Shown here: positions 5,250 to 64,000 of the stretch, in pieces
Position numbering within the stretch: the first letter of the stretch is position 1
Layout of the letters: each line of letters begins with the position of its first letter
From: Blasia pusilla
Lineage: Eukaryota
Assembly (NCBI GenBank): GCA_050084515.1
Contig: CM114271.1
Span: 14,756,001-14,820,000 of the forward strand
DNA length: 64,000 nt
Direction of reading: 5' to 3'
Position numbers and translations under genes: made by a program
Notes under the pieces: model-generated
What the model was told of the DNA's origin: nothing
Databases searched by the model: none
What the model saw: only the letters and a program-made list of their open reading frames with translations

Positions 5250-5968
5250 CAACCCGTCAGGAAATTACATGGGTTCCTCCAACCCGTCGGACTCCGACGG
5301 GTCGTCACAGCTCAAGGTCGGATTCTAGCAACGAGCTAAATGATGCAACCCATCAGAGTCCGACGGATTGCATTCAGATTTGCTAATGCCTGGTAAGAAA
5401 ACCGTCGGAGTCCGATGGGTTGCTCGATAGGCCGCCTTGTGAGGGTGTTTTTTTAAGAATGCAACTCGTCGGACTCCGACGAGTTGCTTGAGTGACTGCA
5501 GGTTTAGAAGGTTTTTTCCCCAAAGCAACCCGTCGAGTCCGACAGTTGCTTGCCTCGGCCGCTTTTTCCCCAAATCAACCCGCCCGAGTCCGACGGGTTG
5601 ATTTCGCCAAAAATAGCGAGGCAAGCAACCCGTCGGACTCCGGACAGTTGCTTTGGGAAAAACCTTCTAAACTCAGATCACTCAAGCAACTCGTCGCCGA
5701 GTCCGACGAAGTTGCATTCTTCAAAAACATCCTCACAAGGCGCTTTGTCGAGCAACCCGTTGACTCGACGGTTTGCTTTGGGCCAAAAACTAGTTAAATC
5801 TATGTTCAATCAAACAAGTCGTCGGAGTCCGACGAGTTGCAATCTTAAAAAAACATCCGAAAAAGCGTGCAGTCCAGCAAGCCGTCGGAGTTCGACGAGT
5901 TGCTTTCGGCAAAAACAAACCTAACCCATTCATCAATCGAGCAACTCATCGGAGTCCGACGAGTTGCG
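5250..5968. repeat. Intronic palindrome array (~13 units) with a ~375-bp foldback
   Basis: Repeated CAACYCGTCGGAnTCCGACGRGTTG. 5399-5574 is the inverted copy of 5601-5774. Confidence 0.9.
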
Positions 5969-7456
5969 AAAGTGTTAAAGATACTCACGTGTTCATGGCA
6001 TGCATTGCCATCTCCACCGTCGCCATGTGATGAGGGTATGGGTGAAGGACCACTGCCTTCACGCAAAAATGTGCCTCCAATGAGTTGGGCCGCTCCTCCG
6101 CAAACTTGGTCCACGCCATGAACCTATGATTTCCATCCCAGATGAAGAAATGCAGATTCCTCATCCAGCTGAATTCCGTGCCCTCAACTTGCCTTCTAAA
6201 GTCCTGGTCTCGCATCCTCCAGAATGTGTCGAGCTTTTCCAAGTCCTCCTCGGTAACCAGAGCTTGGGTTCCATGCTCGTCGTAAGGCTAAACATAGAAG
6301 GGAGGAAAGATGTCGACGTAGGATGCTGTCGCCGCCGATTTTTTTAGCTTCGCGATGTCCTCGACGGACTGAATTTCGTAGGACGTATTCCATTGTCCGC
6401 AATCGGCAGAGTGGAATCCTCGGGGCATTGTGGCCCTCCATGAGTGCCATCTGCTTTACCACCTGTCAGAACTAGGACAAGAGGAATAAGCTACACTGAA
6501 ATCCCAATGAATTGCAATTCACATAATTAAAAAAACCCAGAACCTCTCTTACCCGCTCGAAAATGGGGTCGGTTTCTTGACCAGCTAACTTGTCTGAGAC
6601 AGAGGCTGGCAAATCGACTGGGAACTCGTTGATCCGATAGAGGTCGATGTCCTCCGCCGGGCTTGGAGTCGAGAATGACCGCTCTCCGGCTTCTTCGGCC
6701 ATGTCCACCATCTCCACGCTGGCGGTCCTCATGACCTCGTCATCATCGATTTCAACTTTTGGCGTTTCCACTATGTTGATTGTGTCCCCGGACTTCGTGG
6801 GGGACATTTCCCGCATCTCAACACTTGCGGTTGGACGGGCTGGGCTATCGTCAATGGCTATCGCTTTTTCCCTCCTCGCTTTAGCCAATTCTGCCCTCCT
6901 CACCGACGCGTCCAGACGCTTCTTTTCTCTCTTTTCGTCGGCGATCCTTTTCTTCAAGGCCTGCGACGTCTCGGCCTCTGCGTTCTGTTTATCTAGCGCC
7001 TCTTGAACACGTCTCGCAAGAAGCACTTGGTTGTGCATCTCCGCTTCCCTTTCCCGCTCCTCGATTTCCTGCTGCCTAATTTCATTCACCGAACGAGGCC
7101 CAGGAGAAGCTGATGCAGGAGTCCTAATGGACTTCGGAGTGAAGCTCCCAGACTTGTTGGCTTGTGATTTTTTCCTCGTCATTTTTTCCGGAAATGCCTC
7201 CACCTATGTCCACGACGAATCCCTTGATCAGTCACCTTGTTGATGTCGAGATGGGAGCTTGAATCGCCTTGATGGTTAGCTCGAATCGTCCCGCTATCGC
7301 TCGGTCGAAGCGTCTCGCTCTCGTTCCCTCCTATCGACTCGCGATGTGTCGCCGTGTGAAATGCCCCTTCGTATCTGATCAGCTGCTGCACGGGAGAGTG
7401 AGGAGTGAGGAATGAAGATCGCGAAATGAGAAACCGGAAATGAGCGATTTCTGCCC

Positions 7457-7464
7457 TATTTATA
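7457..7464 (-). promoter_or_regulatory. Candidate TATA box of the ParB-MTase gene
   Basis: TATAAATA on the minus strand, ~275 bp upstream of the ATG at 7182. Confidence 0.5.
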
Positions 7465-7552
7465 CTTTTCTAGCCGTTGGGCTGACCGTTGGGTCCCGTC
7501 GTCCTTTCGACGGTGACGTGCCGGATGTTACGGAAGTCCGGACGTGAAAAAT

Positions 7553-8270
7553 GGCAACCCGTCGGAGTCCGATAGGTTGCCCGGCTCCGCCATCCTGGGT
7601 ACGTCACCACGTGCACGAGCAACCCGTCGGAGACCGACGGGTTGAGCGCCTCCGTCGTCTTCAGAAAAGAACGCGAGGTACCCGCGCAACTCGTCGGAGA
7701 CCGACATGTTGCGCGCCTCCGCCATCCTGGGTACGTCGCCATGTGCACGAGCAACCCGTCGGAGACCAACGGGTTGAGCGCCTCCGTCATCTTTGGAAAA
7801 CAACGCCAGGTAGCCACGCAACCCGTCGAAGACCGACATGTTGCGCGCCTCCGCCGTGTTTGGGACGGGAACGGGACGTATCTTGGGCAATCCGTCGGAG
7901 ACCGTTGGGTTGCACGCTTCCCTCATCAAGGGTTAAGAACGAGGGCTTCCCGTGCAATTCGTCGGAGTCTGGCTGGCTGCACCACAAGGCGAGGCCCTTG
8001 CGCAACCCGTTGGAGGGCGATGGGTTGCACGCCTCGCCGTCTTTGGGCTAAAAGGCGAGGTACCCGCGGAACTCGTCGGGAACAGACGGTTTGCACGCCT
8101 CCGGCATCTTCGGGCAAGAAGGATCGGTATCCGAGCAACTCGTCGGAGAGCGACGGGTTGCTCGCTTTGACAATGTTTAGCAGAAGCGTGCAACCCGTCC
8201 GATGCCGACGGGTTGCAGGCTTCGGTTAGCTTCGGGTAATTTTTGAGTTACCAGGACTCCGACGGGTTCC
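7553..8270. repeat. Intergenic palindrome array between the divergent genes (~12 units, ~66-bp period, A/B higher-order repeat)
   Basis: Units at ~7554, 7619, 7686, 7751, 7818, 7887, 7954, 8002, 8069, 8134 and 8189, with alternating related spacers. Confidence 0.9.
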
Positions 8271-8483
8271 AAGTGTGATGCGCAACCCTTTGCTTCCCAA
8301 ATCCGGTAACATATTGCAACAGAATTGAATGTGTTACAGAATTGGATCCATTGTGTCAGACAATGTCACCCACCGAATTCATCTTGTCAGTAAAAATCTG
8401 TCAAGAGTATCTGTTTCCTATTCACTATAAATTAAATATTCTCATTCTCATTCTCAGTCTCCTCCCATTGGAATCTTCTTGGA

Positions 8484-11400
8484 ATGGATAATTATGTTAA
8501 GCTCACTTGTGGCAGTCATCTGGCGGCCCTTCCTCAATCGGAAATCATTCGACCCCAAGCTCGTTAGTCTTTCATAGCAGTGGATGAATTTTTTTGTCTG
8601 TTCGATTTCTTCTTCAAATTGGAACCATCTTTGTATCCAAAGATGTTAGGGTGGACGGTACGGAAGACATAATAGGTGAGACGGTCCAGCCAGTGACCTC
8701 AGACCGTAAAGTATGGAATCTCCTACCTCTACCAAATGGTCAATACAGAGTTTACGGCCCCCCGATCGTCTGTTTCCCAAGTAGACGGTCTAGAATTTCC
8801 TAGTGCTCCGAGCTCACGTTTGCAACTCCAAGCTCTGCAGATCCGGCCGACTCCAACCGTGACGCTCAGAACAATTTTGTTTTTCTGAAGAGATTCCGGA
8901 TGTTATCAACCTCGTGATCTGCTTCGGGCACCAATCGGGCCTCTGTCCGCCTACGTTCCTCTTGCGAGTATCGGCAATAGTTTGCTTTGTCTCGCCCTTG
9001 AAAATGTTCAAGCACATTCTTGTCGACGATTTAGCCGCCCCACGTCGATGGTAATTGCATTTTTGAGTTGCCTCCACTTGTCGCTCTGCTCAAAAGAAGG
9101 ATGGAGGACGCCTGAAGGGTATGGACAGAAAGTCTGATTGTCATCGATGGTGCAGGCTTCAACGGACAGTGCTTCAATTCCAGATGGTCCTTGGATTGTC
9201 TCCCGCCGCCAATGCGTGGGAGCCTTGGAGTGTAGAAGTCCAGCATGCCCGTATCTAGAGCGCAACGGGCGAGTCAATACGTCGCAATTCCCTCCCAAGA
9301 ATGCAGAAACTCCATACGAGGTCGGTGCCACCATACCGCCGGAGGCCATCGATGTCCTCATTGTCGCATCGCCTTCTACGTTGGAGCGTGTCCCGCATAC
9401 ATATTTTTCATTGTCCACGACTTGGGCTCCACGTCAGAGTATACAAGGCTGGCTGTCCATGTTGGCTCCCACACTCATCCTGTGACCGATGCAATTCAAA
9501 GACACATCAAGGAGGATGTGGCGAAGAAAGTAGCCGAGGTCTCTGAGAAACTCCGGGTTCAAAGCCGGAGTGATCAAGCTCACAACGGCATCACAAATTT
9601 GTGAACAATTGCTTGGAATCCCTGGACAGGGCGAGATCACGGCGGTTGAGGAGAAACAACTCTGGGAAAATCTCGCATTTCTCGCTGATCCTGAATGCGT
9701 CAGATACGAGTTCTAGATGGAAAGACGGCCGAAATGGATGCCATCGCCAAAATCAAGGCCAACTCCAAATTTCCATTCATTCAGAGATGGCAGTTCATGG
9801 GCCAAGGAGGTGAGGGATCCAGGGCCTATGTCTTCAAAATGTCAACCACAGGTCCGTCGAGTGGCCTCGATCTTATAGATCGAATGTGGGAAGGGGAAGA
9901 TCTTTACGGGAGTTGGGTAAGCTTTGATATTTGCTACAAAGTGCTGAACGGATGGTTGACGATGGGTGCTCACATTTATGACCATGTGGAGAAGGGACTC
10001 AAAACTATATTTGTCTGTGAAGTAAAGGCAGAAGACGTTGGCAGTTTGAAGATGTGCTGGTTACTCTTATTGGAGGTGGTGAAGGAAAACAAAAGGCCAC
10101 CTCCGGAAATTTATGGGTTCATGGCGGACAATGCACAACCTGGGTGGATTGCTATCCGGGAAGTGTTATGGGGTGGAGAGGTTCAACCGGAGAGGGAAAG
10201 GTCGGATGCTTTCCATTGGCCACAGTCTGTGACCCGGTTGACCAAATCTTGCATCAAGGAGAATAAGAGGACAGAGCATGTCACTCTACTCCAACGCTGC
10301 AAGGACAGAAAAACCTTGAAGCAGGCCATGGAATGGCAGGAAGAACTTCATGGGTGGTGGAGGAAGCATGCGATTGAGGGGAAGTACAAAGAGTTGTGCT
10401 CTTGGTTGAGTTGGTGGTATGCGTATGAGACAATGGGGAAACTTCATGCGGCAGGTGAGTTCACTATTTTGTCTTGTCAAGCTCACGTTGAGAATTTTTG
10501 TAAAGTTGTAGCTCAGGATGAGAAGCGTGGGAATTATATGGATTTCAAACCCAAGAAACCAAGCAAGCTGTCGGATGCGACGGGTTGCCCGAGTGTGCAA
10601 CCTGACGGAAACCGACGGGTTGCCCAAGGGTGCAACCCGACGGAAACCGACGGGTTGCATCCAGATGTTTGGTGCAACCCGAGTGTGCAACCCGTTGGGA
10701 TCCGACGGGTCACAGAGTCGTTCATGGGATGCCTCGGGCCTGCAACCCGTATGGTTCCGACAGGTCGCTTATTTCTTTGACTCCTGAGTTATTTTCGTTC
10801 CCTTCTAACATTGCCATCGTTGCAGGGATTGAACGTTCATGAAAATGCTCTCTGCCCCAACACAAGTGGAGCACAAAGTGTTCATTCCTCTTGGAGGTCG
10901 TCACAAGCATGCCAACGAATTTCACTTGTGGAGGCATGCCAACAAGACTCGGCAAGAGCAATGCTACAGTCTGCAGCATCCCATATCTTTCTCACAAAAG
11001 GCATAACAAAAGGAAAAGGGCCGTCGATCTAGGAGCTCTATGTCAGGGCGGCTGTGAGATCTTGTGATGAAAAATTGTATGTCGAAGCCTTCAACCGGTG
11101 CGTAGCTGGAACTCCACTTGAGCAAGACGTGTACACATAGGTGGGGATATTTGTGGGCGGGTTTCAAGACGTCCCATACAGATGGTGGTAGAGCAGTCCG
11201 AACGAGACGCGTGGAGACCAGATAAGTATCTTGACTTCAGGTAGGTGAAGAGGCAGCATCGAGGAACCAATCCGGTGATTGATTTGGATGAGGAAATTAC
11301 ACCGCCCAGGTATTCGGGGACCCCGGACCCGTCCCAAATCCGTGATGGAGTTACTTCTCCAAAATCAGTGAATGTTTTATTTCAAAAGCCCTCCGTTGCT

Positions 11401-12328
11401 GGAAGTTCGCAACATCCTGTCACTGGGGTGGTTCAACAATATGGGATTCCGATAATGGAGGTGGATTGCAACCTAAAACGGTGGCTAAAACGGTGGCATA
11501 TATCTCGGAGCAACCCAGGACGTGGACCCACATGCGGGGTAGGATCTGATGGCATTAGGAGAGCATGCGGCACTTTCCTAAATAAGAATCAGACAAGGAT
11601 GGACGACCTCTGCACTGGTTTTGGGGACTCAAAACCTTTGATTGTTTCACGAGGACCAGGGGATCAATTGAAGTACTTCTTCTGCCCAAATGAATCTTGC
11701 GCTTTCTGGAAGTCTTATCCGGCTGCTATTGGAGCTCCCGGGAATACCCCCACGATTTGGCCCATTGCCGCACGCACGAACTACACTCAAGACGAAGTGG
11801 ACAATCTTACAAGTGCCGGTTTCAGACTCGTAGACGGGGGAAGTTTGGAGCATGTTCAGACGAGAGACCTTCGTGATTTCAGTATTCAACCCAAGATTGA
11901 TATCAACATGTACCCGGAGAAGGTGGATGATCTCAATCCATTATTTTTGTTTGAGTCTAGAAATGGGGTGAAGAGAAACAGAATGTGCAGGCCAACGGTG
12001 GAGAGAGCAAAGCGAATTGCAGAAAATGGAGATCATCACCACAAAAGATGTCTTGAGTGGCAATGGAATAGGAAGGATGTATTGGGTCAGGAACAACACT
12101 GTAAATTCAAGTGTCACAGGGGTGTATATGGTGCACATCTGTTGCTTTCCCACATGTTCATGTGATGACTTTGTCCAAAGAGAGACAAGTGGCAAAAGGT
12201 ATTTCCCTTGTAAGCACATGTACTATGTGTTGCTGGTAGTTTTAAGAGAGTCGGAGGTAGGAGTAGAAATCCACCAACCAATTCTGTCCCTCAAAGAAGT
12301 TTGAAGTATTTTAAACAAACCACTTTGA
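8484..12328 (+). pseudogene. MULE-type DDE transposase with N-terminal GCM/WRKY-like zinc domain and C-terminal SWIM finger (frameshifted)
   Basis: GCM-like RRQCVGALECRSPAC...CPHC...CPAY...HTHP (9200-9480). DDE core WVSFD...GFMADNA...DAFHWPQS (9695-10450). Intron 10455-10825. PNTSGAQSVHSSW. SWIM PTCSCDDF...FPCKHMYYVL (12150-12235). TATAAA at 8426. Start codon uncertain. Confidence 0.8.
10562..10770. repeat. Palindrome array inside the transposase intron (~5 units)
   Basis: TGCAACCCGACGGAAACCGACGGGTTGCA at 10631 plus variants at ~10565, 10596, 10686 and 10741. Confidence 0.85.
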
Positions 12329-12711
12329 GGATGCAAAATGAGGTTTTAGATTGTACTTTTATTTTTTTCTCAACCTTCACTTTGAGCTTGAACTCTATTC
12401 AGCCCCGGGAAAATGACAGATTTTTCCCAGACCTTGGATAGAAAAAGTGATTGGTTCCACACTTATGATTCCACTAATTTTTCAGTTTTCTAAATTTTGT
12501 GCAATTCGCAACTCGTCGGACTCAGAGGGGTTGCCAAAATATGGAAGAGGAAAAAAAAACTGTGGGACTGCTTAATATATGAACAAATAAGTGCAAAAAA
12601 TTTCAAACAAAATTTTCCTCTCTTCAACCCAACGGAAACTCTCTTCAATAAAAAGTATCTATTTCGGTTGACCCTAGTTTCCTCTCTCCTCTCTTCCTCT
12701 CCTCTTACCGC

Positions 12712-15202
12712 ACCTCCTCTACCTCCTCATGCACAGGAGAATCCATAGTAGAAACATTACCCTCCAAAAAGTCTCTTGGCCAAGTGACTACTCCACTAAA
12801 ACCAGCCACAGATGCTAACACCGTTGGGGAAAACCCTCCTGATCGAGCCCCATAAATAAATCTCACAGGAACTTGGCTCAGACGTCCATACCCGGATTGC
12901 CAACCAGGTCTATAAGACGTTGTCTCAGTCCAGTAATCCATCTAAAAACCCATCGGGTACAATACTTCTCCTCCAACTAGTACATCCTACGACTCGGCTG
13001 ATGTGACCACTGCAGGTACTCCCAACCGGGAGCTATCAGTCGCATGATCTGGTCTCAACTGTACAGAAAAGTTCTCCCGTGTCATGAATTGAGACCTATC
13101 ATTGGCTCCTCCAAGTGATGTTTGAATCTGGAATGGGCAAGGCTCAAGCTCTGACCTCCGAATATCCAAACCAATACATGCCGCCTTTCCCAACATCAAA
13201 GGTTGGGCACCAGAGTCTAACAAGACTCTATCTGGTCTATACACCTGTCTTGTAGGACTCACCAATCGGAATATCCCACTCTGGTTGTCCAACATACATA
13301 CACCAAGTGTAAGCCTCTCACGATCAATGGCTGGCCGGGCTGGTAATGCATCCATCTTCGCCGCTGCTGCATGCCAAGTAGCACTGGTACTCAATGCTAC
13401 ACCTGACATAAAGGGTCGCTCCACCGCAACACCCTCATCCACCTCAGCACCTGTAGCAGTAACACCCCTACGTTCACACAACGTGGCTACTAGCTGAAAT
13501 ACATGAGCTAAGTCAACTCCTAAAGCCACCAGCTCCGTGGCCGAAAACAATTGGGATCCCAACACTGAAGTTGCCACCCGCAATACTACACTGAATGCTG
13601 CATCCGTGTCTACTACACGCGATGTAGATGCCTTAGTCCCCACTGTCTGCTCAATAGGTTGCGTAGGAACCATGGATGGAGTCCTAAGCACCTCAGACAA
13701 CAAGAATGACTGGGGAAGCCTAGCCTGCCTCCCAACCTCACCCCTCTGTGGGTCCAACTCCACAGTAGCACCACGTGGCTCTGACGCTCGAGTGGCTCCT
13801 CTCGTAACCGCAGCTGATGCCTCAACCTGTGGTAGGAGTAGCCACCGTAGGCTCTCCAACCACTGATCCACCTCTATCACCCCTACTACCTCTACCACCT
13901 CGGCCTCTCGGAGCTACTCCACCATCGCCGCGGCCTGCTCTCAACTCTGGATGAAGATCAAAGCAACGCTCTCGAGGATGACTTGGTCTCCCGCAATGAT
14001 CACACTGAGTTGGGGCCGACTGAGGCCCATCCTCCAAAGTCCGTCTCCCATCCTCTTGGGGACAAAACCTCCTAACATGATCACCTCCACATGTCCAACA
14101 TGATTGTCCTTGCTGCGGGGCAGCAAATGAAGGCAATGGTCTCTACGCAAGTGTCCCTCTAGGACTTGACTAAGGTCGTGTGTACCCCCCATGACTCCCA
14201 CTACTACTACCACCACCACTACTATGAGACTGTGAGGTGGGCTACTAAACACGAGAAGTAGTAGTTGTATCCCTACTGAATGCGGATGTCACTACTCTCA
14301 CCTTCACCATGTTAAGCTCAATCTTCTCAGATAGAGAAAACACATGGGTCAATGTGGGTGAATCATCACTCATAAGAGTAGCATCATGTACGGCGCAACT
14401 CTATGTCCAAGATCCCATACCAAAACTGGGCTGCTTGAGCCTCAGTCATACCCTGGGTAACAGAAATCAAGCGTCCCATACGAATGTATGCCTCACAAAG
14501 ACTCTCACCAGTCTTTCGCTCAAATTCTTGAAGACTCCTCAACTTCTCTGTCTTCACTCCCTGATAGTTCTTCTTCAACCTCTTGAAGAACTCTACAATC
14601 AGGCTGAACGATGGTGGGACACTAGTACCCCCACTGGTACCTCCATGGATACCTCCACTGGTACCCCCACTCCGGCTTGTACTTGTACCACTCAACTTTG
14701 GGTTGGCTGGCATAATAGGAGCACTACTACCAATACCACCATGGGTGATAGACACATAGCCTAGAGACCAATATTGTCTCCACGCCTCAATCTCAGCAAC
14801 ATGGTCCTTCCTAAACTCATGGTAATCATCCATGGGTGGTCCCTCCAAGTGCTGAAACAACCCCTTCCAAGCCAAGAAGGGTGTAAACAACGTGGCGTTT
14901 CGCAACATCTGCATATCACACCACGTATCAAACTCCTGCATGAAGTCCTCCAACTCAATGGTGCCCACTGCACCCGAGTATCGTCGTGGGCCCTTCATGG
15001 CCCCATATATCCCGTCCATATCTCAAATCAATGGAGCTACAACACTCGATAACAACGTAGAAGACTCGGTGTTTGGAACACCCTCGTCCTCCTCTTCATC
15101 AATCGTCGGAAGTGGACAAGGTAGCCGATACCTCAATCCACTCCGTGTAAAATCACCACTGTCTGCACCACGGTCTCCAACCAGACCACCAGACAGCTCC
15201 AT
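12712..15202 (-). mobile_element. 5' half (gag, two zinc knuckles, protease) of the DNMT-carrying Gypsy split by the DNA transposon
   Basis: Gag 15019..14384. CWTCGGDHVRRFC and CDHCGRPSHPRERC. Protease VLLDSGAQ (~13220). Homologous to 60900-63300. Confidence 0.85.
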
Positions 15203-36856: not shown

Positions 36857-37301
36857 GTCAAAAAAACACACTCTCCTAATGAGAGGCTTGGATTACTCAC
36901 AAGACAAGGAGAACCATAGCTCTGCCGCCTCATGCCAAGAGGTTCAACAAAGAGAGAATGAGCTCCAAAGCTCTCTCTCCTTGGGTATACTAGTTTCCCT
37001 TCCCAAACTCTCTTCACGATAACATATGCTCGCACGTCATCTCCTTGACTCTTGATTTGCCGTAGGGGGTCAAGGGCCACTTACCAAAGTGGAAAGTTGA
37101 ATCTACTCAAAATGGTAACTTATTTGAAATAGTAAATTTCTCTACGTGGCTCCAATTGAGCTGAAACGAAGGGAAAACCTACTCTCACAAGTTACCCACA
37201 TGGCCTCAACATGTCATCCTTGACCTCTTGAGGCTTTCCTCCACTATCCTTAAAGGTGCTCTACTATAGACTCGTCGATCTATCCTAAAAGACGTGACAA
37301 T

Positions 37302-40103
37302 TGTCGTGCGCATACATATCGCCAACAACATGTATCGCTTTCACCGAATATAAATACAAACACACAAGATTCCATGCTAACTTATGACATCCAAACTTCG
37401 AGACGATCAAGTACGAAAATATCTCCAATCGCCCCCCTAGTTGGTGATTAGATCCCTCTAACTCGAGATAGCCATCTATCCCTACCTACCATGACATACA
37501 TCTTTAGGACGCTAAGAGCAAAAAGGTTGGGTGCTCATATGGCCCTATCGTTAGTCGCGTTCTTGTCATCCATGTCACAGACACAAGTCAGAATCTATAC
37601 CTACCTAGTATCTAATCTATGTACATATGGGGCACATCCATCGTCCCCGAGGAATCAAAGTGAGAGGTGACATCAGACAAGCCATATTCCACCCTCTCAA
37701 ACACCGATCATAGACTAGCATAGTAGTTGCATAATGGGCAAAACCACACAATATACAACATAAGCCTCTAGAAACTACTGGTAAGCTTGGATCAACTATA
37801 CTATGAATGTTAGGTAGGTGACATGACGTACAGTTACGCACATGGTCCTTTCAAACCATACCATCACGTCTCTCCAATGAGAAAACACCGATTGGAAAAA
37901 CATCTTGCACTCTCAAAATAGTACGTCATGCGATCAAATCCAGAGTCGTAGTTGTCGTTTGCTGCAAGTGGACATAATCTCCCTGATGAAAATTTTGGAC
38001 AATTGGTCGATAACCACCTCCCCGAATAGGAACATGCCTCAACGTCTCCCGATGTTGCGCAATCACCAAGTTCTTAAATGCCATGGGTATCTGTCTCTGA
38101 AACAACTCAATCCTCTAAAAATATGCATGCTTGCATCCATACATCAGAATCATCGAGGTTCAACACCTCACTAGCATCTTGAAGAGAAATCTGGCTCTTG
38201 GGCATAAAGCAACAAGTACGGCAAGAAAGACGCTAAGGATGCATGTCTGCGGAATTTGTATCCCATTGCCAACCACGACAACTATAGGTCCTAATCTCCC
38301 AAGTAACCTCTTTGCAAGCCATACTTGTATAAACTTCTCATCACCGTCTGCACAACCCTTTCTACTAGTCCATCTGCCTCAGGATGATCTTGCAAAGTGG
38401 TGCGGTGGTCAATCAGCGCAAGGCTTGAAACTCCCCGCAAAACTCCGTACCATGGTCTGTCAACACCTCATAATGACTCAGCATTCGATCTAGGAAGGTA
38501 TACGCTACTCCCTTGCTCGCTTTGTCAAGCAATGCAACCAATTCTATCCACTTTGAGAAATGCTCAACCATCACCAACACATAACCACAATGGTGCTTTG
38601 TCAAAGGTAAAGGTCCTACAAAATCCAAACTTCATCGATAACCTAGACCCATGATCTGAAGTGGATGCAACTATGGACTCAGGACATTCAACGATACCTG
38701 GAACCAATCACACACCATGCACTTATCAACAAACTGTTGAACATGAGTCTACATACCTTGCCACCAATATTGTATTTGGAGCAAGCTCTATATCTCCTTC
38801 ACTCCAACACATAATCACTATGGCGCTTTGTCAAAGATTAAGGTCCTCCAAAATACAAACTCCATCAATAATCTAAACCCATGATCGGCAATGGATGCAA
38901 CAATGGAGTTGGAACATTCAACGATGCTCGGACCCAATCATACACCATGCACTTGGCAAAAAATTGTTGATCAACAATCTGCATGTCTCGCCACCAATAT
39001 TGTATATGGAGCAAGCTCTACATCTCCTTTACTAAAAAAAATGACAGAATTTATTGTGGGCATGGTGCACCAAACATGCTCTCTACGACGGATGGGGCAC
39101 TACACGTACTCTACCATCCTCCCAAACTTGCAACACATGCGTCCCCCCCCCCCATTGAAACCATCTGGCTCATTGAAGGATCGGATCCCGCTCTCTAGCA
39201 CCCGCTGTGCTCGCGACGCTGCTTGTACGCAAGTACTCCAAGACTACTCCATCCTCCTGAATATCTCAGCCATCTGTTGCCTCCTTACCGGCCTCTCGAT
39301 CTAAGGACTCTTTATCAAACCTCGCTATCAAAGTCTCAATACTCTAGCTCTCCATACCCAACAAGGCTGAACAATCCCAAATAGGTTGACTCTTGCCATG
39401 TAGGCACTTATTCCTTATCACTCTCTCCATGCCAACGAGTTCCAATCGGATCTCGCTAACTCGAGCATGGGTTACCGCTAAAACCATCGGCATCCTGGTT
39501 GAGCATCTGAGGTCGATGTACTACCTGGAAATCATACTCCTACAACAATAGAGTCCATCTTGCAAGCTTCTCCGTAAGTTTGTCAAACTCCATCAACCAC
39601 TTAAGTGGTTGATGATCAGTAATGATGGTGAAGGGATTGCTTAATAAGTAACATTTAGAATGCGCAACAACCGACACTGAAGCCAAGCACTCACCCTCAT
39701 ACTAGCTATGCTTTGTCCTTGTAGCATTGTTCGAGCGACTAGGGTAAGCCACCATAAACTCTCTACCCTCATCGTCATATTGGGTGAGCACCGCTCTAAG
39801 CCCCAACATACTCAAATCCGTATGCAACTAGAAAGGACGCCCCTTGATAGGTCTCCTCAATAAGGGCTCGGACGTCAACTGTCCTTGAGCAGCTAAAATG
39901 CTCTCTCCTACTCATCCCCCTAGTGCCACTCATTATCCACCTTGGTCAGCAAGGTTAACGGCTGCGCAATCGAACTAAAATCCTTAACGCACTATCGATA
40001 AAAATTCGCCAGTCCCATGAATGCATAAACTCAACTCACATCTCGAGGACCTGGAATTCCTGAGATAGCCTCTACCTTTGTTTATTGAACCCCAAGGCCA
40101 CCT
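37302..40103 (-). mobile_element. 3' part of a PHD-finger Gypsy (RNase H, integrase, PHD, PPT, short LTR)
   Basis: MDFVGPLP...VMVEHFSKW...LTDHGTEF. Degenerate PHD at 37617-37841. PPT AGGGGGGCGA. LTR 37302-37427. Colinear with 55871-58470. Confidence 0.88.
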
Positions 40104-54300: not shown

Positions 54301-57300
54301 GAATAGCTAAGCCTATGGAGCCCATGCTAGCGGGGACTTAAGAAGTAGGTCATGATTGTTGGTCTAAGGAGGAAAGACCTGGGTGTTGCCCACCAAAGTT
54401 CAAACCTAGACTAATTAGTCATGAGACTAGGAAGGGCAGCAAAACTAGCCATGGGACTACATCACAAAACTTGGAGTTGCATCATTTTGATATCAATTAG
54501 AATATGATGTGTGTTTGATGTATTTATAATATCATTTCTATAGAAAATTTTGTCCATATAATTTTCATGGAAAGTTTATTGATGTAAGACATCAATATCA
54601 AAAAAATATTTGATTGATATCAAATCAATATGAAACTTAGCGCTATCAAATTTCATGCTGAAATTATATCAACGTTAGCATCCTCTAACTTTTGTGATGT
54701 AGCGATAGGTGAAACGCGCATATGTCTTATGACTAGCCTTAGAAGAGAAATTAAGGAGCGTAGTTACTTGTGGGGACAAAATAAAGACAAGAAAGGTTTG
54801 AGACCTTGGATCCAAGCGCCAAGTCAAGGGCGAGAAGCAAGGAACATGTTAGTAATGAGGATCAGCAAGATGCCACGAAACTAGTCAAGAAACTCAAATG
54901 GAGGCAAGATGACCATCAAACGCCAAATAGGGAGTCAACATAGGTACTAACCATTAAAAATGTGAAATTTGGGTCCAAGCTCCAAGATGCATTTGGTGAG
55001 CCCACAGCTGCATAAGCTTCTACGAAGCCTTTGCCAAGCCATCTAGATGGATAACTAGTCAAATATCAGTCCGCGGGTTGCAAACCACGTTTGGGTAGAG
55101 GGCCAAAATCAAGGTCTCGAGAGGGATAATGAGGAAGGTGGGATTCCCCTGAAGAATCCTAGATATACTTATAGGTGGGGACAGTCTCCCGCTCTATACG
55201 ATCAAGCCCTTGAACTAAGAACTAACTATGATGTGTGTTTGGCCATGTTTCAAGTTTGAGCTAAGGGACGTACCTTGAGGAATTAGACAACGCGCTCTAG
55301 TGTAGGCAAGTGACTTGGGGAGATTGGTCAAGGCTTGGGGAAGAGGCTTCCTAGGGAGACAGTATGCACTTGGGAAGACTCAACCCTATTAGCCCTTGGA
55401 AGATTTTGGGCTACCTACGAAACAAGCAACCGGTTGAGTCTTTGAGACTTTCGGTCAATCTAGGTCTTTGACTTGCAAAGCTCAAAGTTGGGAGTGCTTT
55501 AGGGTGAAGCTAGGTAAAGTAGAGGATAGAATCTACAATGTAGTAGGTCTAGCTAGCAACTATGTCAGTCTATTAGTTGCAACCTACCATGAACCAATGG
55601 TTGACATCCAGAGAACAGGTGCCAAGGGCACCTCCATCAACTCATCACCAATGAGCTGTAATGATGAGGCACAAACATCATCTCCACACTTGCATAACAG
55701 GGTGGCTAGCCAAATCCCATCGGTGGGCATACTTCCCAATGCTACAACATTGATCTGAAGCACAAGAAACTTGGGCACGATAGAATTTTGTGGCCATCCC
55801 CAACATTGAACTTGGTATGTTCTCCCCTTGAGCCTCAGCAATATGCGTGGTCATACTCGTTTTGTCCATTTTTCATACGCATACACATCGCTACATAACA
55901 TACATCGTTATCATCGAACATACATACAAACACATACGATCCCATTCTTACTCATGGAATCCAGACACCAAGACGAGAAGTACCAAAATATCTCCAATCA
56001 CTGGCGGCCGTGACCACTAGTAGTGTGCGGCAAGACCACTAATTCCAAATACTCACCTATCCCTACCTACCATGACACATATCTCTAGGAAGCTAAGAGC
56101 AAAAAGGCTAGGTGCTCATATGGCCCCATTGTTAGTCGCCTTCTTTTTCATCCATGTCACAAACACAAGTCGAAATCTAGAACTACCTACTCTACGTACA
56201 TCTGGGGCACATCCATCGTCCTTGAGGAACCCTAGTGAGAGGTGGCGTCAGAAATTCCATATGCCACCCTCTCGAACACCCATCACAAACTACCATAGTG
56301 GCTGCACCACGGGCGGAACCACACAGCATACACCGCAAGCTTCCAAGAACTACTGCTAAGCTCGGATCAACTATACTGTCAATGTTAGGAAGGTGACATG
56401 GCGCACAGTTACGCACATGGTCCTTCCAAACCATACCATCGTGTCCTCCAATAAGAAAACACCAGATGGCAGAATCTCATGCACCCTTAAGATAGTGTGT
56501 CTTGCAGTCACATCCAACGTCATGAGTGTCGTCTGCTACAAGTAGACAAAGTCTCCCTCATGAAACCTCCCGATACTTGATTAATAATCACCTCCCCGAA
56601 TAGTCGCATACCTCAATGTATCCCGATGTTGCGCAATCGCCAAGTTCTCAAACGCCATAGGCATCACTCTCCTAAAAAATTGAGCCCTCTCAGAGCATGC
56701 TCGCATCCATACATCATGGTCATCAAGGTTCAAGACCTCACCAACATCTCGACGAATGGCCGCAGGTAAATCTGACTCTCGGCCATAAAGCAACAAGTAT
56801 GGTGAGAAAGACGCTAAAGATGTCTGCATGCTAAATATGTATCCCATCGCCAACCACAACAACTACAGGTCTCAATCTCCTAAGTGACCTCTGTGCAAGC
56901 CATACATGCGTAAATCTCTCTTCATCGTCTCCGCAACCCTCTACTAGTCCATCCGCCTCAGGATGATCTCGCAAAGTGGTGCGGTGGTCGATTAACGCCT
57001 CATCACACAAGGCCTGAAACTCCGTGCAAGACTCTGTATCCTATTCTGTCAACACCTCAATTGGTGCGCCATAATGACTCGGTCAACACTGGATCTAGGA
57101 AGGCATACCCTACTCCCTCACTTCTTTTTCAAGCAATGCAAGCAACTCTATCCACTTCAAGAAGTACTCGACCATCACCAACACATAACGACTATGGTGC
57201 TATGTCAACGGTAAAGGTTCTGCAAAATCCAAACTCCATCTAGAACCTAAACCCATAGTCAAAAGTGGATGCAACTGTGGAGTCAAAACAATGAACAATA

Positions 57301-59569
57301 TTCGGACCCAATCACACACCATGTACCTGGCAACAAATTGTTGAATGTCAGTCTGCATGCCTCGCCACCAATATTGTATCTGGAGCAAGTTGTACGCCCG
57401 CTTCACTCCAAAATGACCCAACTCCTCATGGGCATGACCCATCAAACGTGCTCTCTATGAAGGATGAGGCACTACACATACTCTACCATCCTCCCAGACT
57501 CGTAACACATGTGTCCCCTCCCACCTGAACTGTCTGGCTCGCTATAGGATCCGATCCCGCTCTCTAGCACTCATTGTACTCTTGATGCTGCTAGTACACA
57601 TGTACTCCAAGAATACTCCATCCTCATGAATATCTTGGCTCCATGTCATCTCCTCACGGGACTCTCGATCTAAGGACTCTCCATCAGACCTCGCCATTGA
57701 AGTCTTAACACTCTGGCTCTCCATAGCCAACAAGCCCAAATAGGCTAATGCGTGCCATCCTGGCACCAACTCCTCATCACTCTCTCCATGCCAACGAGCT
57801 CCATTTGCATCTCACTGACTCGGGCATGGATTACGGCTCAAACCATCTGCATCTTGGTTGAGCATCCCAAGTCTATGTACGACCTAGAGGTCATACTCTC
57901 GCAACAAACGAGCCCGCCTTGCAAGCTTTCTTGTAAGCTTGTCGGACTCCATCAACCACTTAAGTGGTTGATGATCAGTAATAATGGTAAAGGGGTTGCC
58001 GAATCACTAACACCTCAAATGAGCGACAACCCACACTGCAGCCAAGCACTCACCCTCATACAAGCTATACTTTGCCTCTCATGCATTGTTCAAGTGACTA
58101 GCGTAAGCCACCATGAACTTTCTACCATCATCGTCATGCTCAGTGAGCACGGCTACAGCCCCAACATGCTCCAATCTATATGCAACTAGAAAGGACGCCC
58201 CCTAATCAATCTCCTTAATATGGGCGCGGACGTCAACCTATCCTTGAGCAGTTGAAATGCTCTCTCTTGCTCATCCCCCTAGTCCACTCTTGATCCACCT
58301 TGGTCAGCAAGGTTAGCGGCTTCGCAATCAAATTGAAACCCTTGACGTACTCTTGATAGAAGTTCGCCAATTCCATGAATGCACGAACTCGACTCTCATC
58401 TGTAGGGCCCGGGATGCGTGAAATAGCCTCTACCTTTGTCTGCTGCACACCAAGGCCATCTGGGTATATCGTATGACCCAGATACTCAATCTGGTCGTAG
58501 CTTTAGCCCATGTTACTGCAATCGTCGAAACACCTCCTCCACATATTGCTCATGCTTCCCAACCGTGGCGCTAAAGACTAAGATGTCATCAATATAATAC
58601 CTAGCAAAATCCACACCTGCCAAGATCCTATGAAACTCAGTCGGGGCGTTCTTTAACCCAAATGGTAACCGCCATTAGTACAAACAATCCTTCCCATGAG
58701 GATCGATGCCCCAAAATTCCGTCTTCTTCCTATCTACCAATCTGATAGGCAGTTGATGGTATCCGGCTCAAAGATCAAACAAACTGAAGACCTTTGCATG
58801 CCCAATAGCATCAAAGATCTCCTCAAGGATGGGCATGGCATACCTATTGGACTTTGTCTGCCGATTGATAGGTCGGTAATCTGCACACATCCGCCTATCC
58901 GTCCAATTTCCATGCACATCCTTCTTGGCAAGCATGATAGTGGCAGATGCATACTCTCCATGCAACATCTCCACTAGTTTTGCTCCAACCAAGTCCTGGC
59001 TCCTACTCTGAATCAGAGCCCTCTCCATGTCACTGTACTTGTAGGGTCGTTAGAAGATTGGCATGTCGCTCAACAAACTCAATGCGGATCCCTAGATCCT
59101 TCAGCGTACCCAAATCATGCATGCTAAAATGCAAAATAACTCCTTTAACTCCTAAGGAACTGATGTATCCGGCGCCGCTCTCCTCTTATTAACTTAGGGC
59201 TCATATCTGGTAAAAAACCCTAGTTTTTCCGAGTAGTCAAATAGTCGGGAGCCGCAGTGGTAGCGCATTCTCGTATGTCGAGTTATCTCCCAGTTCAGGT
59301 TCCATCGAAGCTCTTCTGTGAGCACACGGACGGACTAGGCCACTTTGTATCTCTAAGTTTTGTAAAGATTTCATTGATTTCGTCACTTTGTGTTTTCTCA
59401 CAAAGGGTGTCTCTCCTAATCATCCCTAGTGTGTCGATCTCCTCAAGTCTCGCCCTCAGCCATTGCCTCAACTGTCTCGGTTGACATGGGGCTCACCAAC
59501 GCAACAGTTGTGATCCGTCTCAACCTCAAACGACATTGCTCAGCTACTCCTAAGCTGATAATCCATGTC

Positions 59570-60560
59570 AGAAGATCAGGTCCATCGCCTGATCCAAAAC
59601 ATATCTGATAGTGACTACCGTCACTATCAGAGGCATCACGACGATACTACCGTCACTCTTGTAAGGAATCCCATCACTTGCCCCCACTCATTAGCGTTGG
59701 GCTCCACGAACCGCTCTACCTGGTCATCCCAAAACAAGGCAGGTCTGGCCTCCTTGAATGCATAGGAAGCGGGAAAACTCACAAATGTGGGAATGGATGC
59801 CCCTGGCATGTCAATCTTGTTGACCACACTCAATAGAGGTCAATCATTGCGCCGCACTTCCTGTGATCGACGACCTGGATCCAGAATAGAATCCACCAAC
59901 AAAGGGGATGGGCGCTCCGCTCTCGCATAAGCCCTCTGCAACATCTCATGTGGAACCAAGTTGGTCCAACAAAGACGTAGGCAATGTGCTCGTTAACCTA
60001 CACTCGCCACATCCAAAAACACTCCTGGGCCGATCCATGCGCGCACATGATGTGCACTCCTCACTACGCGGAACCTCCAATCGCCCAAAATTGGCACATT
60101 CTCTAGAATGTTTGTTGGAGAACAAGACTGATGCTCCCGCAAGTTGCAAGATCCTCTTCATCTCCCAAAAAAAACCTGGATTGAGTGTTAGCCAACTTGC
60201 TACCTCATCCACCACTAGACTGGCCCTAAAACAGCCAAACCAATAATGACCAAATCTATGGTCCCTACGCGCTCCAATTCCTACGCCCCCAGCAATGAAA
60301 TGTCCCTCGATAGGGAACTCTGGAACCCTTGTACGGTGGACGTGGACAACAAGTTGAGAAATCATAGGCATAACTACACCACATGGTGAAGTGAAGCGCG
60401 CCTCGCAACATCATCAATCTCAACGTAGAGGTATAGCTGCACACGCACTCCTCCCTGCAAAATAGCAACTAAGCCATTGTTGATCCCTCCAAAGAGATCC
60501 AACATGCGAATACCCTCCTTTGGGATGCGCCACACAATTGGTGTGGTGTCCAAGGGGGTC
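59570..60560 (-). pseudogene. DNMT3-like C5-cytosine methyltransferase domain inside pol
   Basis: Motifs in order across frameshifts: I LDLFGGI, II YVEID, IV IDLVIIG(W.C.G, degraded), VI ILENV, VIII LDVASVG*RAH..RLCWTNL, IX EPNANE..VMGF, X VLDQAMD. Confidence 0.85.
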
Positions 60561-61598
60561 ATAGTAGCACTCCTGGCTACCTCGGGTGCTTCTGACCCAT
60601 CACGCTTTGGTGCAAACGCCTCACTCCATGTCGTCTGCACGTCATCATTGGATAAGTGTTGAAGCTTCTCACTCAAGCCCCACAACGGCACGTCTCTTGC
60701 ACAAAAAGATGCCGCTACCATAACACTCCTCTCCCTAGAAGTGTCAGGCACGGGTGTGTCTTCTTCATGGACATGCCCCTCAATCATATCACTAGGCCAC
60801 GTGATGGCGCTGCTGAATGTTGCTAATGTCGCCATCTTTTGTGGCCCACGCTCGATCACTCCACACGTGAATCGCACTGGTAATGAACTAAGTCACCGCA
60901 TTGAGTCATCACCGGACTGCCATCCTGGTTTGTAGGACGCTAACTCCCCCGGTGCGTAATCCAGGGAAAACCCCATTGGGTATAACACTGCACCTCCAAC
61001 CAAGACGTCATAGGACTCGACATCGGGCACTATCGCCTTGGCTCGCACGACGAACTCATCTGTAGGATTCCTTGGCGAATCCTCACCACGGCCTCCTATC
61101 GGGTGATAAACTTTGTGGTACTCGCTCCACCCAAGGATGTTTGTATCCAGGATGGACAACGCTCCACATCGACCTTCGTCAGGCCCAATCTTCTAAATGC
61201 CGCTTTCCCCAACATCAGGGGTTGCGATCCCAAATCTAACAAGACGCATTGCGGACAAAACACTCTACCTCTTGGACTAACCAAATGGAAGACCTCTCCC
61301 CAAACACAACACCTGGAGCAACCATGGCACGCTCTATGGCGGGTCTAGTGGGCATCTCCGCCATCCTAGCAGCCACAAACTACCATGAATCTGAGGTGGA
61401 CGGCCCGAGCATCGGCTGCAAGGGCAGATCCACCACCTCCTCTGCAATCACCTCTGAACGTGATGCAGTAACACCATCTCCAAGCTCACATATCGAAGCC
61501 GCCAGCCAAAGAACCTCGGCGGACATACCTCCCAACATCATAACATCGGAAGTAGAAAACAAAGGAGCACGGTACACAATCGTGGCTACTCCCAACGT

Positions 61599-61936
61599 GG
61601 GGTCTGGTATTCTGGCATGAGAGAGGAAGAGAGGAGAGTCTCTCTTCAAAAAAAAGGCAAAAAAGGCATTTTTTGGGTGTTTTAACGTTTGCAACCCGTC
61701 GGACTCCGACGGGTTGCAAATGTTAAAAGAAAACAACAAAAACAAAAAAATTGCAAAAAAAAGGTTTAAAATTTTCCAAAAAAAATTTGCCTTTTCAACT
61801 TGTCAAAACTTTCCTCTCTCCAACTTGTCGGAAACTCTCTTCAAACCAAAAGAGCCCTACGGGTTGCCAATATCTTCCTCTCTCCTCTCTTCCTCTCTTC
61901 CTCTCCTCTCTTCCTCTATTCCTCTCCTCTTACCGC
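61599..61936. mobile_element. 338-bp non-autonomous derivative of the ParB-MTase DNA transposon
   Basis: Begins GGGGTCTGGTATTCTGGCATGAGAGAGG and ends CTCCTCTTACCGC. Central palindrome at 61681-61727. Degenerate 15-bp flanks (10/15). Confidence 0.88.
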
Positions 61937-63704
61937 TCCTCCCCCCAACATCGTACTCGACACATTCTCCTCCTGTGCATCAGCAATAGGATTCGTCGTA
62001 CTTGCTTCTCCTATTTTCCTCCATGCTTGCACACCAACAACATCACCTCTTTGGGAACTCTGATCAGGACCCATCGATGGGGTCCTCATCGCCTCAACAA
62101 CGTAAAAGACTTAGGAAGCCTGGTCTATTTCCTGGCTTTCCCTCTCTGTGGATCCAACTCTGCAGCTGCTCCACGTGTAACAACAGCGGCAGCTTCCAAT
62201 TGGACATTCACGCACATCCAACCAGGATCCTCCATATCTCTGGATGCTCCATAAGACGTTGATGCCACTGATCCGGCATCGAGTAACGGCAATTCCATAG
62301 CGGCAATCTGCTACTACAATTGCTGTATCTGAGAAGCCATCCCATCCTCACGCTCGGCCTCTTCCTTGACGCATCTAGGTGGTGGAACTCTACCTCCTCC
62401 AAGAGCAACTCAACCACCCTCTTGGGCAAATCCAACTCCTCGTCCCTCAACAAGACCACCTGGTGCACAACCTCTAGTCCCACTTGGACCGGCAACTCGA
62501 TCTGATGCCCTCTGTGGCCCTCGATTTGGACTTAACTCGGGATGTAAGCTGAAAAATTGTGCACGTGTATGACCATACCTCTGAAAATAGTCACACTGAT
62601 AAACTCTTGGTGCAGCCCCATCTCCTCCTCCATGATGAGGCACGCGTCCACTACCATGACAAGTGCAATCGCGTTGGTGATGGGCTCAACCACATGCCCA
62701 ACAATTAATCGTAGACGGCTGCTACTGAGTCGCATATGAAAGCGCAGGTCTCTATGGCACGACCTCCCGGTATCCTCCCTGAGCTCGTGGTGCCACAGAC
62801 CTCTCTCAAAATCCATGTTGCTACACCAGTGGTGCAGGCAATCCTAACTACTCTTGCCCAGAACCCATGGTGGCTACGCTCTCCTCCGCCATGTTGCGCT
62901 CAATGTTCTCGGTGGTCATAAAAACATCTATCAAGGTAGGTGAGATGTGCATAAGAAGTACCCCATCCCTCACCCGTTTCCGTAGGTCTCAGTCCAACAT
63001 CGTGTACCATGCCCGAATAGCCTGGGACTCTCTCACCCCCTGGATGACGCTAATCAACCGGGGAAAGCAAGTGTAAGCCTCACGCAAACTCTCACCCAGT
63101 CGCCTCTAGAAGTTGAGGATGCTCCGCAACGTCTCCATTCATACCCCCTGATAGCTCGTCCGCAACTCTGCAAAGAACTCAACCACGGGGCTGAATCTAG
63201 GACAGACCCGATTGGACGATGCAACTGCGCCAATTCGAGTTATCCCTCCTAAAACATCACAAGTGGAAGAGGAAGTAGCCTCTCTTGACTCCTCCTCCTT
63301 ACCTAGAAATGGCTCAGTCCATGCGGCACTCAATCTACACTCCCTCTCACTAAGGCGTGTACTGTGCGGCAACAAATGGCGTGGTGCGGTATATCAGAGA
63401 TTGTCCTATCATCTCATCAACAGAACATACCCTCAACTCTGGACATCCCACACATGTCTATGTCCCCTAAACCCATACATCAACGATGCTCTTAGCATCT
63501 ACACAAAACCCAATATCCCAAAATAACTACCCAATACCTGGAATTTCCTCACACGTGCAGGGCAAAAGCCAGAATGGATAAAGTGAACAAATATTGATGT
63601 TGCTCCTCAGCAACTAAAAATCTCAACCCCAACTTGGTCGTGAAGACAAACTCCTCCAATCAGCAAGTCTTACTCCTCTGGTATTGACGATGTTCAAATC
63701 TCCT

Positions 63705-64000
63705 CGATGTGCGGTGCGACGGATGTGCGGGGATTACCGACCTATCAATCGACAGGCGAAGTCGGATCGATATGCCATGCCTACTCGTGAGGAGATCTTT
63801 GATACATTAAGGCATGCAAAGATTTTCAGTACTTTAGATCTTCGTGCTGGCTATCATCAGCTTCCTATCAGGTTTGAGGATAGAGAGAAGACAACATTCT
63901 GGGGGATAGATCCATTCGGGAGAGATTGCTTGTATCAATGGCGGTTCTTACCATTTGGGTTGAAGAACGTATCTGCGGAGTTTCAAAGAGTGATAGATAG
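63705..64000 (+). pseudogene. RT fragment of the same PHD/DNMT Gypsy family, opposite orientation
   Basis: RMCGDYRPINRQAKSDRYAMP...LDLRAGYHQ...LPFGLKN. Confidence 0.88.

Follow-up and report, generated by a model that had tools for sequence, protein, structure and literature searches.

We analysed a 64,000-nucleotide stretch of contig CM114271.1 (GenBank assembly GCA_050084515.1, forward-strand positions 14,756,001 to 14,820,000; the window, numbered here from its first letter), for which a first-pass annotation made from the letters alone had proposed a Gypsy retrotransposon with a DNMT3-like cytosine-5 DNA methyltransferase (MTase) between protease and reverse transcriptase and a PHD finger past the integrase. 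That architecture is borne out by tblastn, profile hidden Markov model (HMM) and Pfam searches. Taken jointly, the evidence makes it very probable that positions 55868-63288 of the minus strand (copy A) are a dead copy, truncated at both ends, of a Ty3/Gypsy family of ~9 kb, in which open reading frame 1 (ORF1) encodes gag(CCHC), protease and the DNMT3-like MTase and ORF2 encodes reverse transcriptase, RNase H, integrase and PHD; that four further pieces of the family (copies B, C and D and fragment E) lie within the same 64 kb and represent at least two subfamilies; that the MTase is an old and selected part of the family; and that the copies cluster with liverwort and moss elements.

Copy A is degenerate, and its domains follow one another as gag(CCHC), protease, DNMT3-like MTase, reverse transcriptase, RNase H, integrase and PHD. 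By Pfam, tblastn and HMM, the order protease-reverse transcriptase-RNase H-integrase is that of Ty3/Gypsy elements. The stretch 62682-62494 aligns to the CCHC part both of P0002, a 1278-aa gag-protease-MTase protein of Marchantia, and of the family HMM, which was built from ten relatives and matches copy A all the way from gag through the MTase. The N-terminal ~100 residues of gag and everything upstream are missing. At the other end, the alignment of copies A and C holds at ~80% identity down to ~55868 and then breaks, which sets the 3' limit of copy A; of the 3' long terminal repeat (LTR), nothing is left beyond ~25 nt that resemble its first bases. The PHD finger of copy A scores 39.8 bits against a Pfam cut-off of 24, keeps seven of eight zinc ligands (by eye against ORF2 of the intact relative L029) and is 46% identical to the PHD of P0044, a protein of the algal clade described below.

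The MTase claim cannot be secured from copy A alone, because Pfam, run on 25 single stop-free pieces of it, gave no DNA_methylase match, and two pieces run by phmmer against the PDB either matched DRM2/DNMT3A over motifs I-II at E ~1 or had no match. A word-based search with a copy A piece likewise gave no longer relatives among 975 candidates. With the family as reference, the domain is readable. Residues 699-1171 of P0002 align by tblastn with 61063-59639 in one frame, stops included, with 226 of 479 positions identical (47%). The family HMM matches the MTase region at 60886-60380 (125.9 bits), 60142-59996 (45.1), 59992-59843 (58.1) and 59833-59642 (72.1), leaving its positions 904-950, the motif IV stretch, uncovered. 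Motifs I (60502-60473), II (60427-60413), VI (ILENV, 60109-60095), VIII (59992-59960), IX (59701-59660) and X (~59600-59577, placed by hand count) can be recognised, as the first-pass annotation had read them. Its motif IV did not hold: the DNA at that place (60256 downwards) is shifted and garbled, without Pro-Cys. The linker and MTase contain nine in-frame stops in 416 codons; with these, the loss of the motif IV Pro-Cys and the loss of one PHD zinc ligand, copy A is dead, a fossil.

The same layout recurs outside copy A. A second, diverged subfamily had been proposed at the start of the window and further on, and copy B (15202-12712, continued at 396-1) confirms it, with 67-69% amino-acid identity to P0002 and 45% to copy A from protease to MTase start. 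The 308-aa open protease frame of copy B (12990-13913), a query blind to the MTase, retrieved 27 longer proteins, of which Marchantia polymorpha contributes 16 (best identity 68%), Sphagnum three and Calypogeia fissa one, with seven others. PF00145 is precomputed in 15 of them, and P0003, P0004, P0005 and P0014 match the MTase region too, so that no fewer than 19 of the 27 carry it. With the MTase region of P0002 as the query, 78 proteins were matched. Many metagenome polyproteins (1.1-2.2 kaa) combine PF00145 with reverse transcriptase, RNase H, integrase and PHD, and the named green-algal matches are Monoraphidium and Haematococcus, with Hariotina reticulata and Scenedesmus sp. reached via cluster look-up. 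HMMER with the Calypogeia protein P0028 matched 281, 925 and 4631 representative clusters at E<=1e-30, 1e-10 and 1e-3, the last figure including ordinary methyltransferases. In an alignment-based pattern scan of metagenomes, 311 of 600 matches were confirmed relatives and 80 loci were kept; the scan with a single protein gave 41 pattern matches and no confirmed relative.

Most metagenome loci are as broken as the window copies, a frame of at least 500 aa being present in only 5 of 37 loci of at least 8 kb. The intact relative L029 has a single open ORF1 of 1369 aa with Asp_protease_2 and DNA_methylase (1.8e-13), and an ORF2 of 1047 aa with RVT_1, two RNase H models, Integrase_H2C2, rve and PHD (2.6e-10, 40.6 bits). 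The Pfam check proposed in the first-pass annotation is positive in copy A for PHD, and for DNA_methylase in L029 ORF1 rather than in the copy A pieces. Loci L012, L034 and L037 carry LTR pairs of 307-344 bp (TG...CA, 90.7-94.5% identical) around ~9.0-9.1 kb, with a leader of ~1 kb. The L029 contig (9317 bp) shows no LTR and has a 23-nt partly palindromic repeat at 11-33 and 9257-9279; relatives of the subfamily other than that of L029 have 340-bp LTRs. These observations support the MTase layout as a family trait and not a one-off capture.

The kind of METHYLTRANSFERASE was judged on relatives (family profile, single sequence and model), not on the broken copy A. Against the PDB, the family profile finds DNMT3A (3e-17), DNMT3C (3.5e-15) and DNMT3B (1e-14), followed by HaeIII (4e-7), tobacco DRM (5.8e-7), HhaI (2e-5) and DRM2 (1.6e-3), with no DNMT1 at E<=0.01; ten orders of magnitude separate DNMT3A from the next class, and a single relative sequence gives the same ranking. 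P0002 and the family profile are colinear with DNMT3A, and the motif order is non-permuted, in copy A as well. The MTase is therefore not rearranged as in plant DRM, whose motif order is permuted. An AlphaFold model of the L029 domain (23-row alignment) reached a predicted local distance difference test score of 91.8 and a predicted template-modelling (TM) score of 0.91. In a Foldseek comparison of this model with the PDB, ranks 1-47 among the matches listed are all DNMT3A/B/C (E 5.8e-19 to 2.5e-16), with target-normalised TM-scores of 0.80-0.83 for the ten best-ranked catalytic-domain chains and 0.77-0.83 for all such chains listed. Host DNMT3A/B/C are thus closest in sequence and in predicted fold. 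The family domain differs from them and from DRM2 in having no PWWP, ADD or UBA domain; Pfam on P0002, P0007 and L029 ORF1 found no PWWP or ADD, only DNA_methylase (and protease). With no host reader domains, it is a DNMT3-like catalytic domain and not a DNMT3 orthologue. Its motif IV reads AGWPCQGH against GGSPCN in DNMT3A, and the segment between motifs VIII and IX is longer than in host DNMT3.

The enzyme has been kept under selection. In all 10 aligned proteins the motif IV core GWPCQGH, motif VI ENV, motif VIII AHR.R..W and motif IX ERA are without variation, as are the catalytic Cys, E-N, H-R.R and W in 23 of 23 sequences. Intact copies with the catalytic Pro-Cys, which the first-pass annotation had suggested looking for, thus exist among the relatives, which are found intact in Marchantia, Sphagnum, Calypogeia, chlorophytes and metagenomes; in the window all copies are dead. 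Pairwise comparison of L029, L032 and L036 over 316 codons gives ratios of nonsynonymous to synonymous substitution rates (dN/dS) of 0.119, 0.128 and 0.097; for pairs with L012 the ratio is 0.21-0.23, or undefined because dS is saturated. These results argue that the MTase is an old, selected part of the family, with a predicted DNMT3A/B-like fold.

The first-pass annotation had placed the MTase inside pol. It does lie between protease and reverse transcriptase; in intact relatives, however, it forms the C-terminal part of ORF1 (gag-protease-DNMT), upstream of an in-frame stop, with reverse transcriptase, RNase H, integrase and PHD in ORF2, and there is no uninterrupted pol. In L029 and L036 both ORFs share one frame, with a single TAG between them (L029:5083-5085, L036:4661-4663). 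We scanned this junction in 60 rows with a recognisable reverse transcriptase start (59 loci and copy A) and could recognise it in 30. An in-frame stop stands at the same place in 29 of these 30 (21 TAG, 8 TAA); one locus has TAC. The codon after the stop is always CAA or CAG: TAG/TAA CAA CCC occurs 24 times, TAG CAA CCT once and TAG CAR YYA four times. UAG CAR YYA is the leaky-stop context of tobamoviruses. The remaining 30 rows are degenerate, copy A included (the relatives' conserved stop is no longer recognisable at its junction), or belong to a third subgroup. In Marchantia and Calypogeia, the gene models terminate at the position equivalent to the stop. From the conserved stop and its context we infer read-through into ORF2.

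At the other end of ORF2, the PHD of L029 has a complete Cys4-His-Cys3 zinc pattern, and its nearest solved fingers are those of CHD4, PHF12, PHF21A, KDM5A/B (PHD1), ATXR5, UHRF1, DPF3 and KAT6A. Most of these fingers bind H3 tails with unmethylated K4. The family PHD shares the ...PPL...P.G.W.CP.C ending of these neighbours; that it may read unmodified H3 is a lead.

An unrooted, quick maximum-likelihood tree of the MTase (39 of 39 rows kept; copy A read in one frame, with X at stops) places copy A in a clade of 11 together with five Marchantia rows, Calypogeia, Sphagnum and three metagenome rows (Shimodaira-Hasegawa-like approximate likelihood ratio test, SH-aLRT, 100). The sister clade (n=9) has the same gag-protease-MTase layout, and a separate clade of 13 (SH-aLRT 99) contains Hariotina and Scenedesmus. 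For the span from the protease to the beginning of the MTase we used 21 of 23 rows, leaving out two that had no more than 52 columns filled; the resulting tree, which drew a long-branch warning from the program, joins copy B to Sphagnum (SH-aLRT 85) and sets copy A deeper. Both trees were built without host DNMT3/DRM or an outgroup and are silent on the donor. By sequence, then, the window copies cluster with liverwort and moss elements. The proposed diversification in a probable land plant is supported by the two subfamilies in the window and by bryophyte proteins as their closest relatives.

This kind of element was described in 2018 by de Mendoza et al. as KnitGypsy-Dnmt3 of Klebsormidium nitens (PMC5890265). 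Like the present family, it is a Gypsy LTR polyprotein with an intronless, non-rearranged DNMT3-type domain, and it is under purifying selection (Ka/Ks < 0.2, against 0.10-0.13 in the present relatives). Its host is a charophyte alga, whereas our nearest relatives are bryophyte elements. The authors called the acquisition lineage-specific to K. nitens; their table of 13 green-lineage species has Physcomitrella and Selaginella, and neither a liverwort nor Sphagnum (PMC5890265). No K. nitens name occurred among the 20 relative clusters that we looked up (Hariotina, Scenedesmus and Calypogeia only) or among the named matches. The text and readable supplements of that paper contain no occurrence of PHD and no in-frame stop; its figures and large supplement PDF may show either. 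SymbioDIRS-Dnmt3 and SymbioLINE-Dnmt of Symbiodinium are retrotransposon-borne C5 MTases as well, and SymbioDIRS-Dnmt3 methylates CG de novo in yeast; they differ in their DIRS and LINE backbones, their dinoflagellate hosts and the lack of an integrase-PHD, and were acquired independently according to the authors (PMC5890265). Chromoviruses carry a chromodomain at the integrase C-terminus, the same place as the present PHD, whose ligand is predicted from sequence; that the chromovirus module targets integration is established, as cited in a preprint (bioRxiv 10.64898/2026.05.21.726589). The EpiLTRs of that preprint are likewise LTR elements with a DNA MTase and a chromatin reader. They have an adenine MTase, a DNMT4-related cytosine MTase and a chromodomain, occur in Cymbomonas and Euglena, and derive from an acquisition that the authors hold distinct from the 'streptophyte Gypsy-DNMT3'. 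In what is available of later papers, that term appears only in citing the 2018 work, and a full-text literature search, with subscription journals outside its scope, found no description of bryophyte elements of this kind, of their PHD or of the stop between MTase and reverse transcriptase. The window copies are thus fossil members of a kind already described, whose spread in land plants and green algae is apparently undescribed.

The anatomy suggests how active members might work. Translation of ORF1 to its stop would supply the MTase in Gag-like amounts, and occasional read-through of the in-frame TAG or TAA would give a polyprotein from Gag through protease, DNMT, reverse transcriptase, RNase H and integrase to PHD, to be cut by the protease. 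The MTase would act on new cDNA or on the fresh insertion, as de Mendoza et al. proposed for cDNA (PMC5890265), and the PHD of the integrase would tether integration to nucleosomes with an unmodified H3 tail, that is, to silent, repeat-rich chromatin, much as the chromodomain does in chromoviruses. To the 2018 proposal the anatomy adds the enzyme on the Gag-side product and the PHD at the place of the chromodomain. That five family pieces lie within 64 kb of repeat-rich DNA would be expected from integration targeted to silent chromatin, and just as much from mere survival of insertions there. We give this chain of steps as a whole somewhat less than an even chance, and none of it is possible from the window copies. 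A broader scenario is doubtful: one ancient DNMT3 capture might have founded a Viridiplantae-wide clade of Gypsy elements, each with a writer (DNMT3-like) and a reader (PHD, unmodified-H3 type), which would reach beyond Klebsormidium to chlorophytes (Hariotina, Scenedesmus), several further lineages and land plants (Marchantia, Calypogeia, Sphagnum and the present genome). Within it, the MTase would have shifted from its place between RNase H and integrase to the ORF1 terminus, where a leaky stop would yield it in Gag-like surplus for marking the cDNA of the element itself or its landing site.

Several observations weigh against these readings. All family copies in the window are broken, the 5' end is missing in every one of them, and an LTR search around copy A found no direct repeat. 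The label 'land plant' comes only from the hosts of the relatives, and transposon trees need not follow host trees. In the third subgroup of relatives the frame continues through the junction without a stop; where the stop is present, re-initiation is an alternative to read-through, or the stop may be the true end, with ORF2 expressed otherwise. The ligand of the PHD is suggested by sequence neighbours only. In P0044, from the algal clade, the order is reverse transcriptase (209-411), RNase H (513-654), MTase (779-1098), integrase (1144-1593) and PHD (1588-1667), and P0066 (Hariotina), P0073 and P0175 (Scenedesmus) likewise carry the MTase in the gap ahead of the integrase, past RNase H. The place of the enzyme thus varies within the family, and a mechanism based on position cannot cover all members. 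These four green-algal and metagenome proteins also have 300-400 additional residues past the PHD. Finally, catalysis in this lineage is a prediction.

This last point bears on the most serious alternative, that the conserved domain does not methylate the element's own DNA and instead acts in trans on host chromatin or RNA, or is a non-catalytic partner or decoy of host DNMT3/DRM, as DNMT3L is for DNMT3A. The Klebsormidium Gypsy domain gave no de novo methylation in yeast, a result that its authors call inconclusive since human DNMT3B failed too, and RNA methylation and host-side effects are among the options that they list (PMC5890265). Some of the DNMT3A/B chains matched by Foldseek come from complexes with DNMT3L or from homo-oligomers, which makes an oligomerising surface conceivable. 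An inert scaffold, however, would not need the catalytic Cys, the ENV and the arginines that are invariant in 23 of 23 sequences, and action in trans and in cis are not exclusive. We consider this alternative unlikely.

Two further explanations concern the copies themselves. If a host DNMT3 fragment or another element had landed in a single Gypsy copy of a family without MTase, the lack of a Pfam DNA_methylase match in the copy A pieces and their E ~1 against DRM2/DNMT3A would be expected. The same segment stands, however, at the same place in copy B, in at least 19 of the 27 proteins found via the protease alone, in LTR-bounded 9-kb elements and in the 1369-aa frame of L029, with dN/dS ~0.1; such a capture, the very outcome that the first-pass annotation had named as fatal to its reading, is very improbable. 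Transposon domains are often domesticated (a point also discussed in PMC5890265), and the window copies might then be host genes for a DNMT or PHD protein that serves the plant. Against this stand the nine stops in 416 codons, the frame changes, the lost Pro-Cys and zinc ligand, and the fact that copies A and B each contain an inserted transposon. Moreover, CpG observed/expected is 0.50-0.68 in copies A, B and C against 0.85-0.92 in younger neighbours (the chromovirus and the 12.3-kb insertion described below). We regard domestication as exceedingly improbable, and the copies as remains of a transposon family.

The coordinates of all features are collected in the table.

Features of the MTase-bearing Gypsy family and of the insertions in its copies (window positions; P and L numbers denote relatives; HMM, family profile)
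Feature	Positions	Strand	Basis
Copy A, 3' untranslated tail past PHD stop, with ~25 nt resembling the 3' LTR start	55845..56197	-	A/C alignment; LTR starts of L037, L034 and copy C compared
Copy A, PHD finger at integrase C-terminus, one zinc ligand replaced	56198..56332	-	Pfam PHD 4.8e-10, residues 49-93 of piece 56195-56476
Copy A, integrase (H2C2 zinc domain and core), several frames	56410..57733	-	Integrase_H2C2 8e-13 at 57203-57454; tblastn P0044 1144-1593, P0014 1114-1239
Copy A, RNase H	57794..58219	-	RT_RNaseH 1e-7 (57887-58003) and 0.074 on two pieces; tblastn P0044 513-654
Copy A, reverse transcriptase	58489..59210	-	RVT_1 5.3e-6 (58516-58674); tblastn P0012 698-1010, P0044 209-411
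Copy A, degenerate ORF1 tail and ORF1/ORF2 junction	59211..59576	-	tblastn P0002 1170-1236 at 59634-59431; junction scan
Copy A, DNMT3-like C5-MTase domain, motifs I, II, VI, VIII, IX, X recognisable	59577..60535	-	tblastn, HMM, motif mapping
Copy A, protease-to-MTase linker	60536..60886	-	HMM positions 715-871, piece 60886-60380, 125.9 bits
Copy A, aspartic protease, LLDLGSQ at 61242-61222 (relatives LLDSGAQ)	60905..61299	-	HMM 581-711, 73 and 55 bits
Copy A, gag-protease linker	61302..61595	-	HMM 478-576; tblastn P0002 520-612
340-bp non-autonomous insertion in copy A, termini as in the 12.3-kb element and one palindrome	61596..61935		blastn 61599-61662 to 399-483, 61804-61918 to 12608-12721
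Copy A, gag with CCHC knuckles (62682-62494)	62098..63288	-	tblastn P0002 120-479; HMM 98-354
Copy B, second subfamily: 183-nt leader, gag (15019-14390), CCHC, protease, linker start	12712..15202	-	tblastn 67-69% aa to P0002; HMM 244, 295, 86 bits
Copy B continued: linker and MTase motifs I (150-121), II (75-58)	1..396	-	tblastn P0002 802-931, 59%; HMM 106 bits
12.3-kb foreign insertion splitting copy B	397..12711		relatives' alignments stop at 12712 and resume at 396
Copy C, subfamily of A: reverse transcriptase part, RNase H, integrase, decayed PHD (37620-37850), 3' LTR	36935..40103	-	blastn 78-80% to A; tblastn
Copy D, reverse transcriptase fragment, runs off window	63618..64000	+	76% nt to A 58628-58893; tblastn P0012 802-856, P0043 585-672
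Fragment E, gag-protease linker of a further copy	55587..55850	-	BLASTP 42% over 55 aa, E 1e-13, to A piece 61383-61802

Homology of copy B to the metagenome elements (blastn 77-79%) begins at 15202; its CCHC part lies at 14121-13897, and the copy leaves the window before motif IV. The further fragments that had been proposed are confirmed by blastn and tblastn at ~37298-40103 (copy C) and 63618-64000 (copy D). The 3' LTR of copy C begins TGTCACG at ~37297, its end being approximate, and its PHD (E 3.3e-4, 21.1 bits) falls under the Pfam cut-off. Fragment E, absent from the first-pass annotation, directly adjoins the truncated 3' end of copy A. A search for further family fragments at 50-56 kb and 63.2-63.7 kb gave nothing above noise. 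Just upstream of the gag remnant of copy A, 63339-63495 matches 51503-51659 in the same orientation (157 nt, 72.6% identity), and no protein similarity was found for this match.

The window is a transposon nest without a recognisable host gene, 22 long frames that were scanned giving only chromovirus and Copia pieces. Six sequencing runs contain small shares (0.06-0.14) of the words of the stretch, and no RNA run is listed for it. The 12.3-kb insertion in copy B has GAGGTAGAGGAGGT repeated at both junctions, inverted, purine-rich termini (…GTAAGAGGAGAGGAAGAG…) and at least 24 clustered copies of the palindrome GCAACCCGTCGG-n-CCGACGGGTTGC. Its 54 frames gave nothing in Pfam beyond a sub-threshold SWIM finger (11972-12301, E 0.0053), and an Atlas comparison gave no lead (best score 0.75). 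It is probably young, because its CpG observed/expected is 0.92, and it may be a Mutator-like DNA transposon, a candidate that we leave unclassified. A third match resembling its termini lies at 51154-51246. An intact-looking chromovirus at 15620-19210 (+), with a 216-aa frame for zinc knuckle and protease and a 924-aa frame for reverse transcriptase, RNase H, integrase and chromodomain, adjoins the truncated 5' end of copy B. Copia-type fragments (RVT_2, Retrotran_gag_2, SH3_retrovirus) lie on both strands at 22323-27756.

Since hosts fight transposons mainly by methylating cytosines, a transposon with a de novo MTase of its own is a paradox, which has so far been studied in two algal groups only. 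The kind has diversified in bryophytes, including Marchantia polymorpha, where its proteins sit in databases as 'hypothetical'; with methylation mutants and methylomes already at hand, this tractable land plant would open the paradox to experiment. The relatives offer separable hypotheses for such work: the enzyme on the Gag side before the stop, the PHD at the place of the chromodomain, and the different domain order of the chlorophyte elements. If the doubtful reading of a single ancient capture were true, land plants would have lived with a transposon-borne de novo MTase beside their own DNMT3/DRM for hundreds of millions of years.

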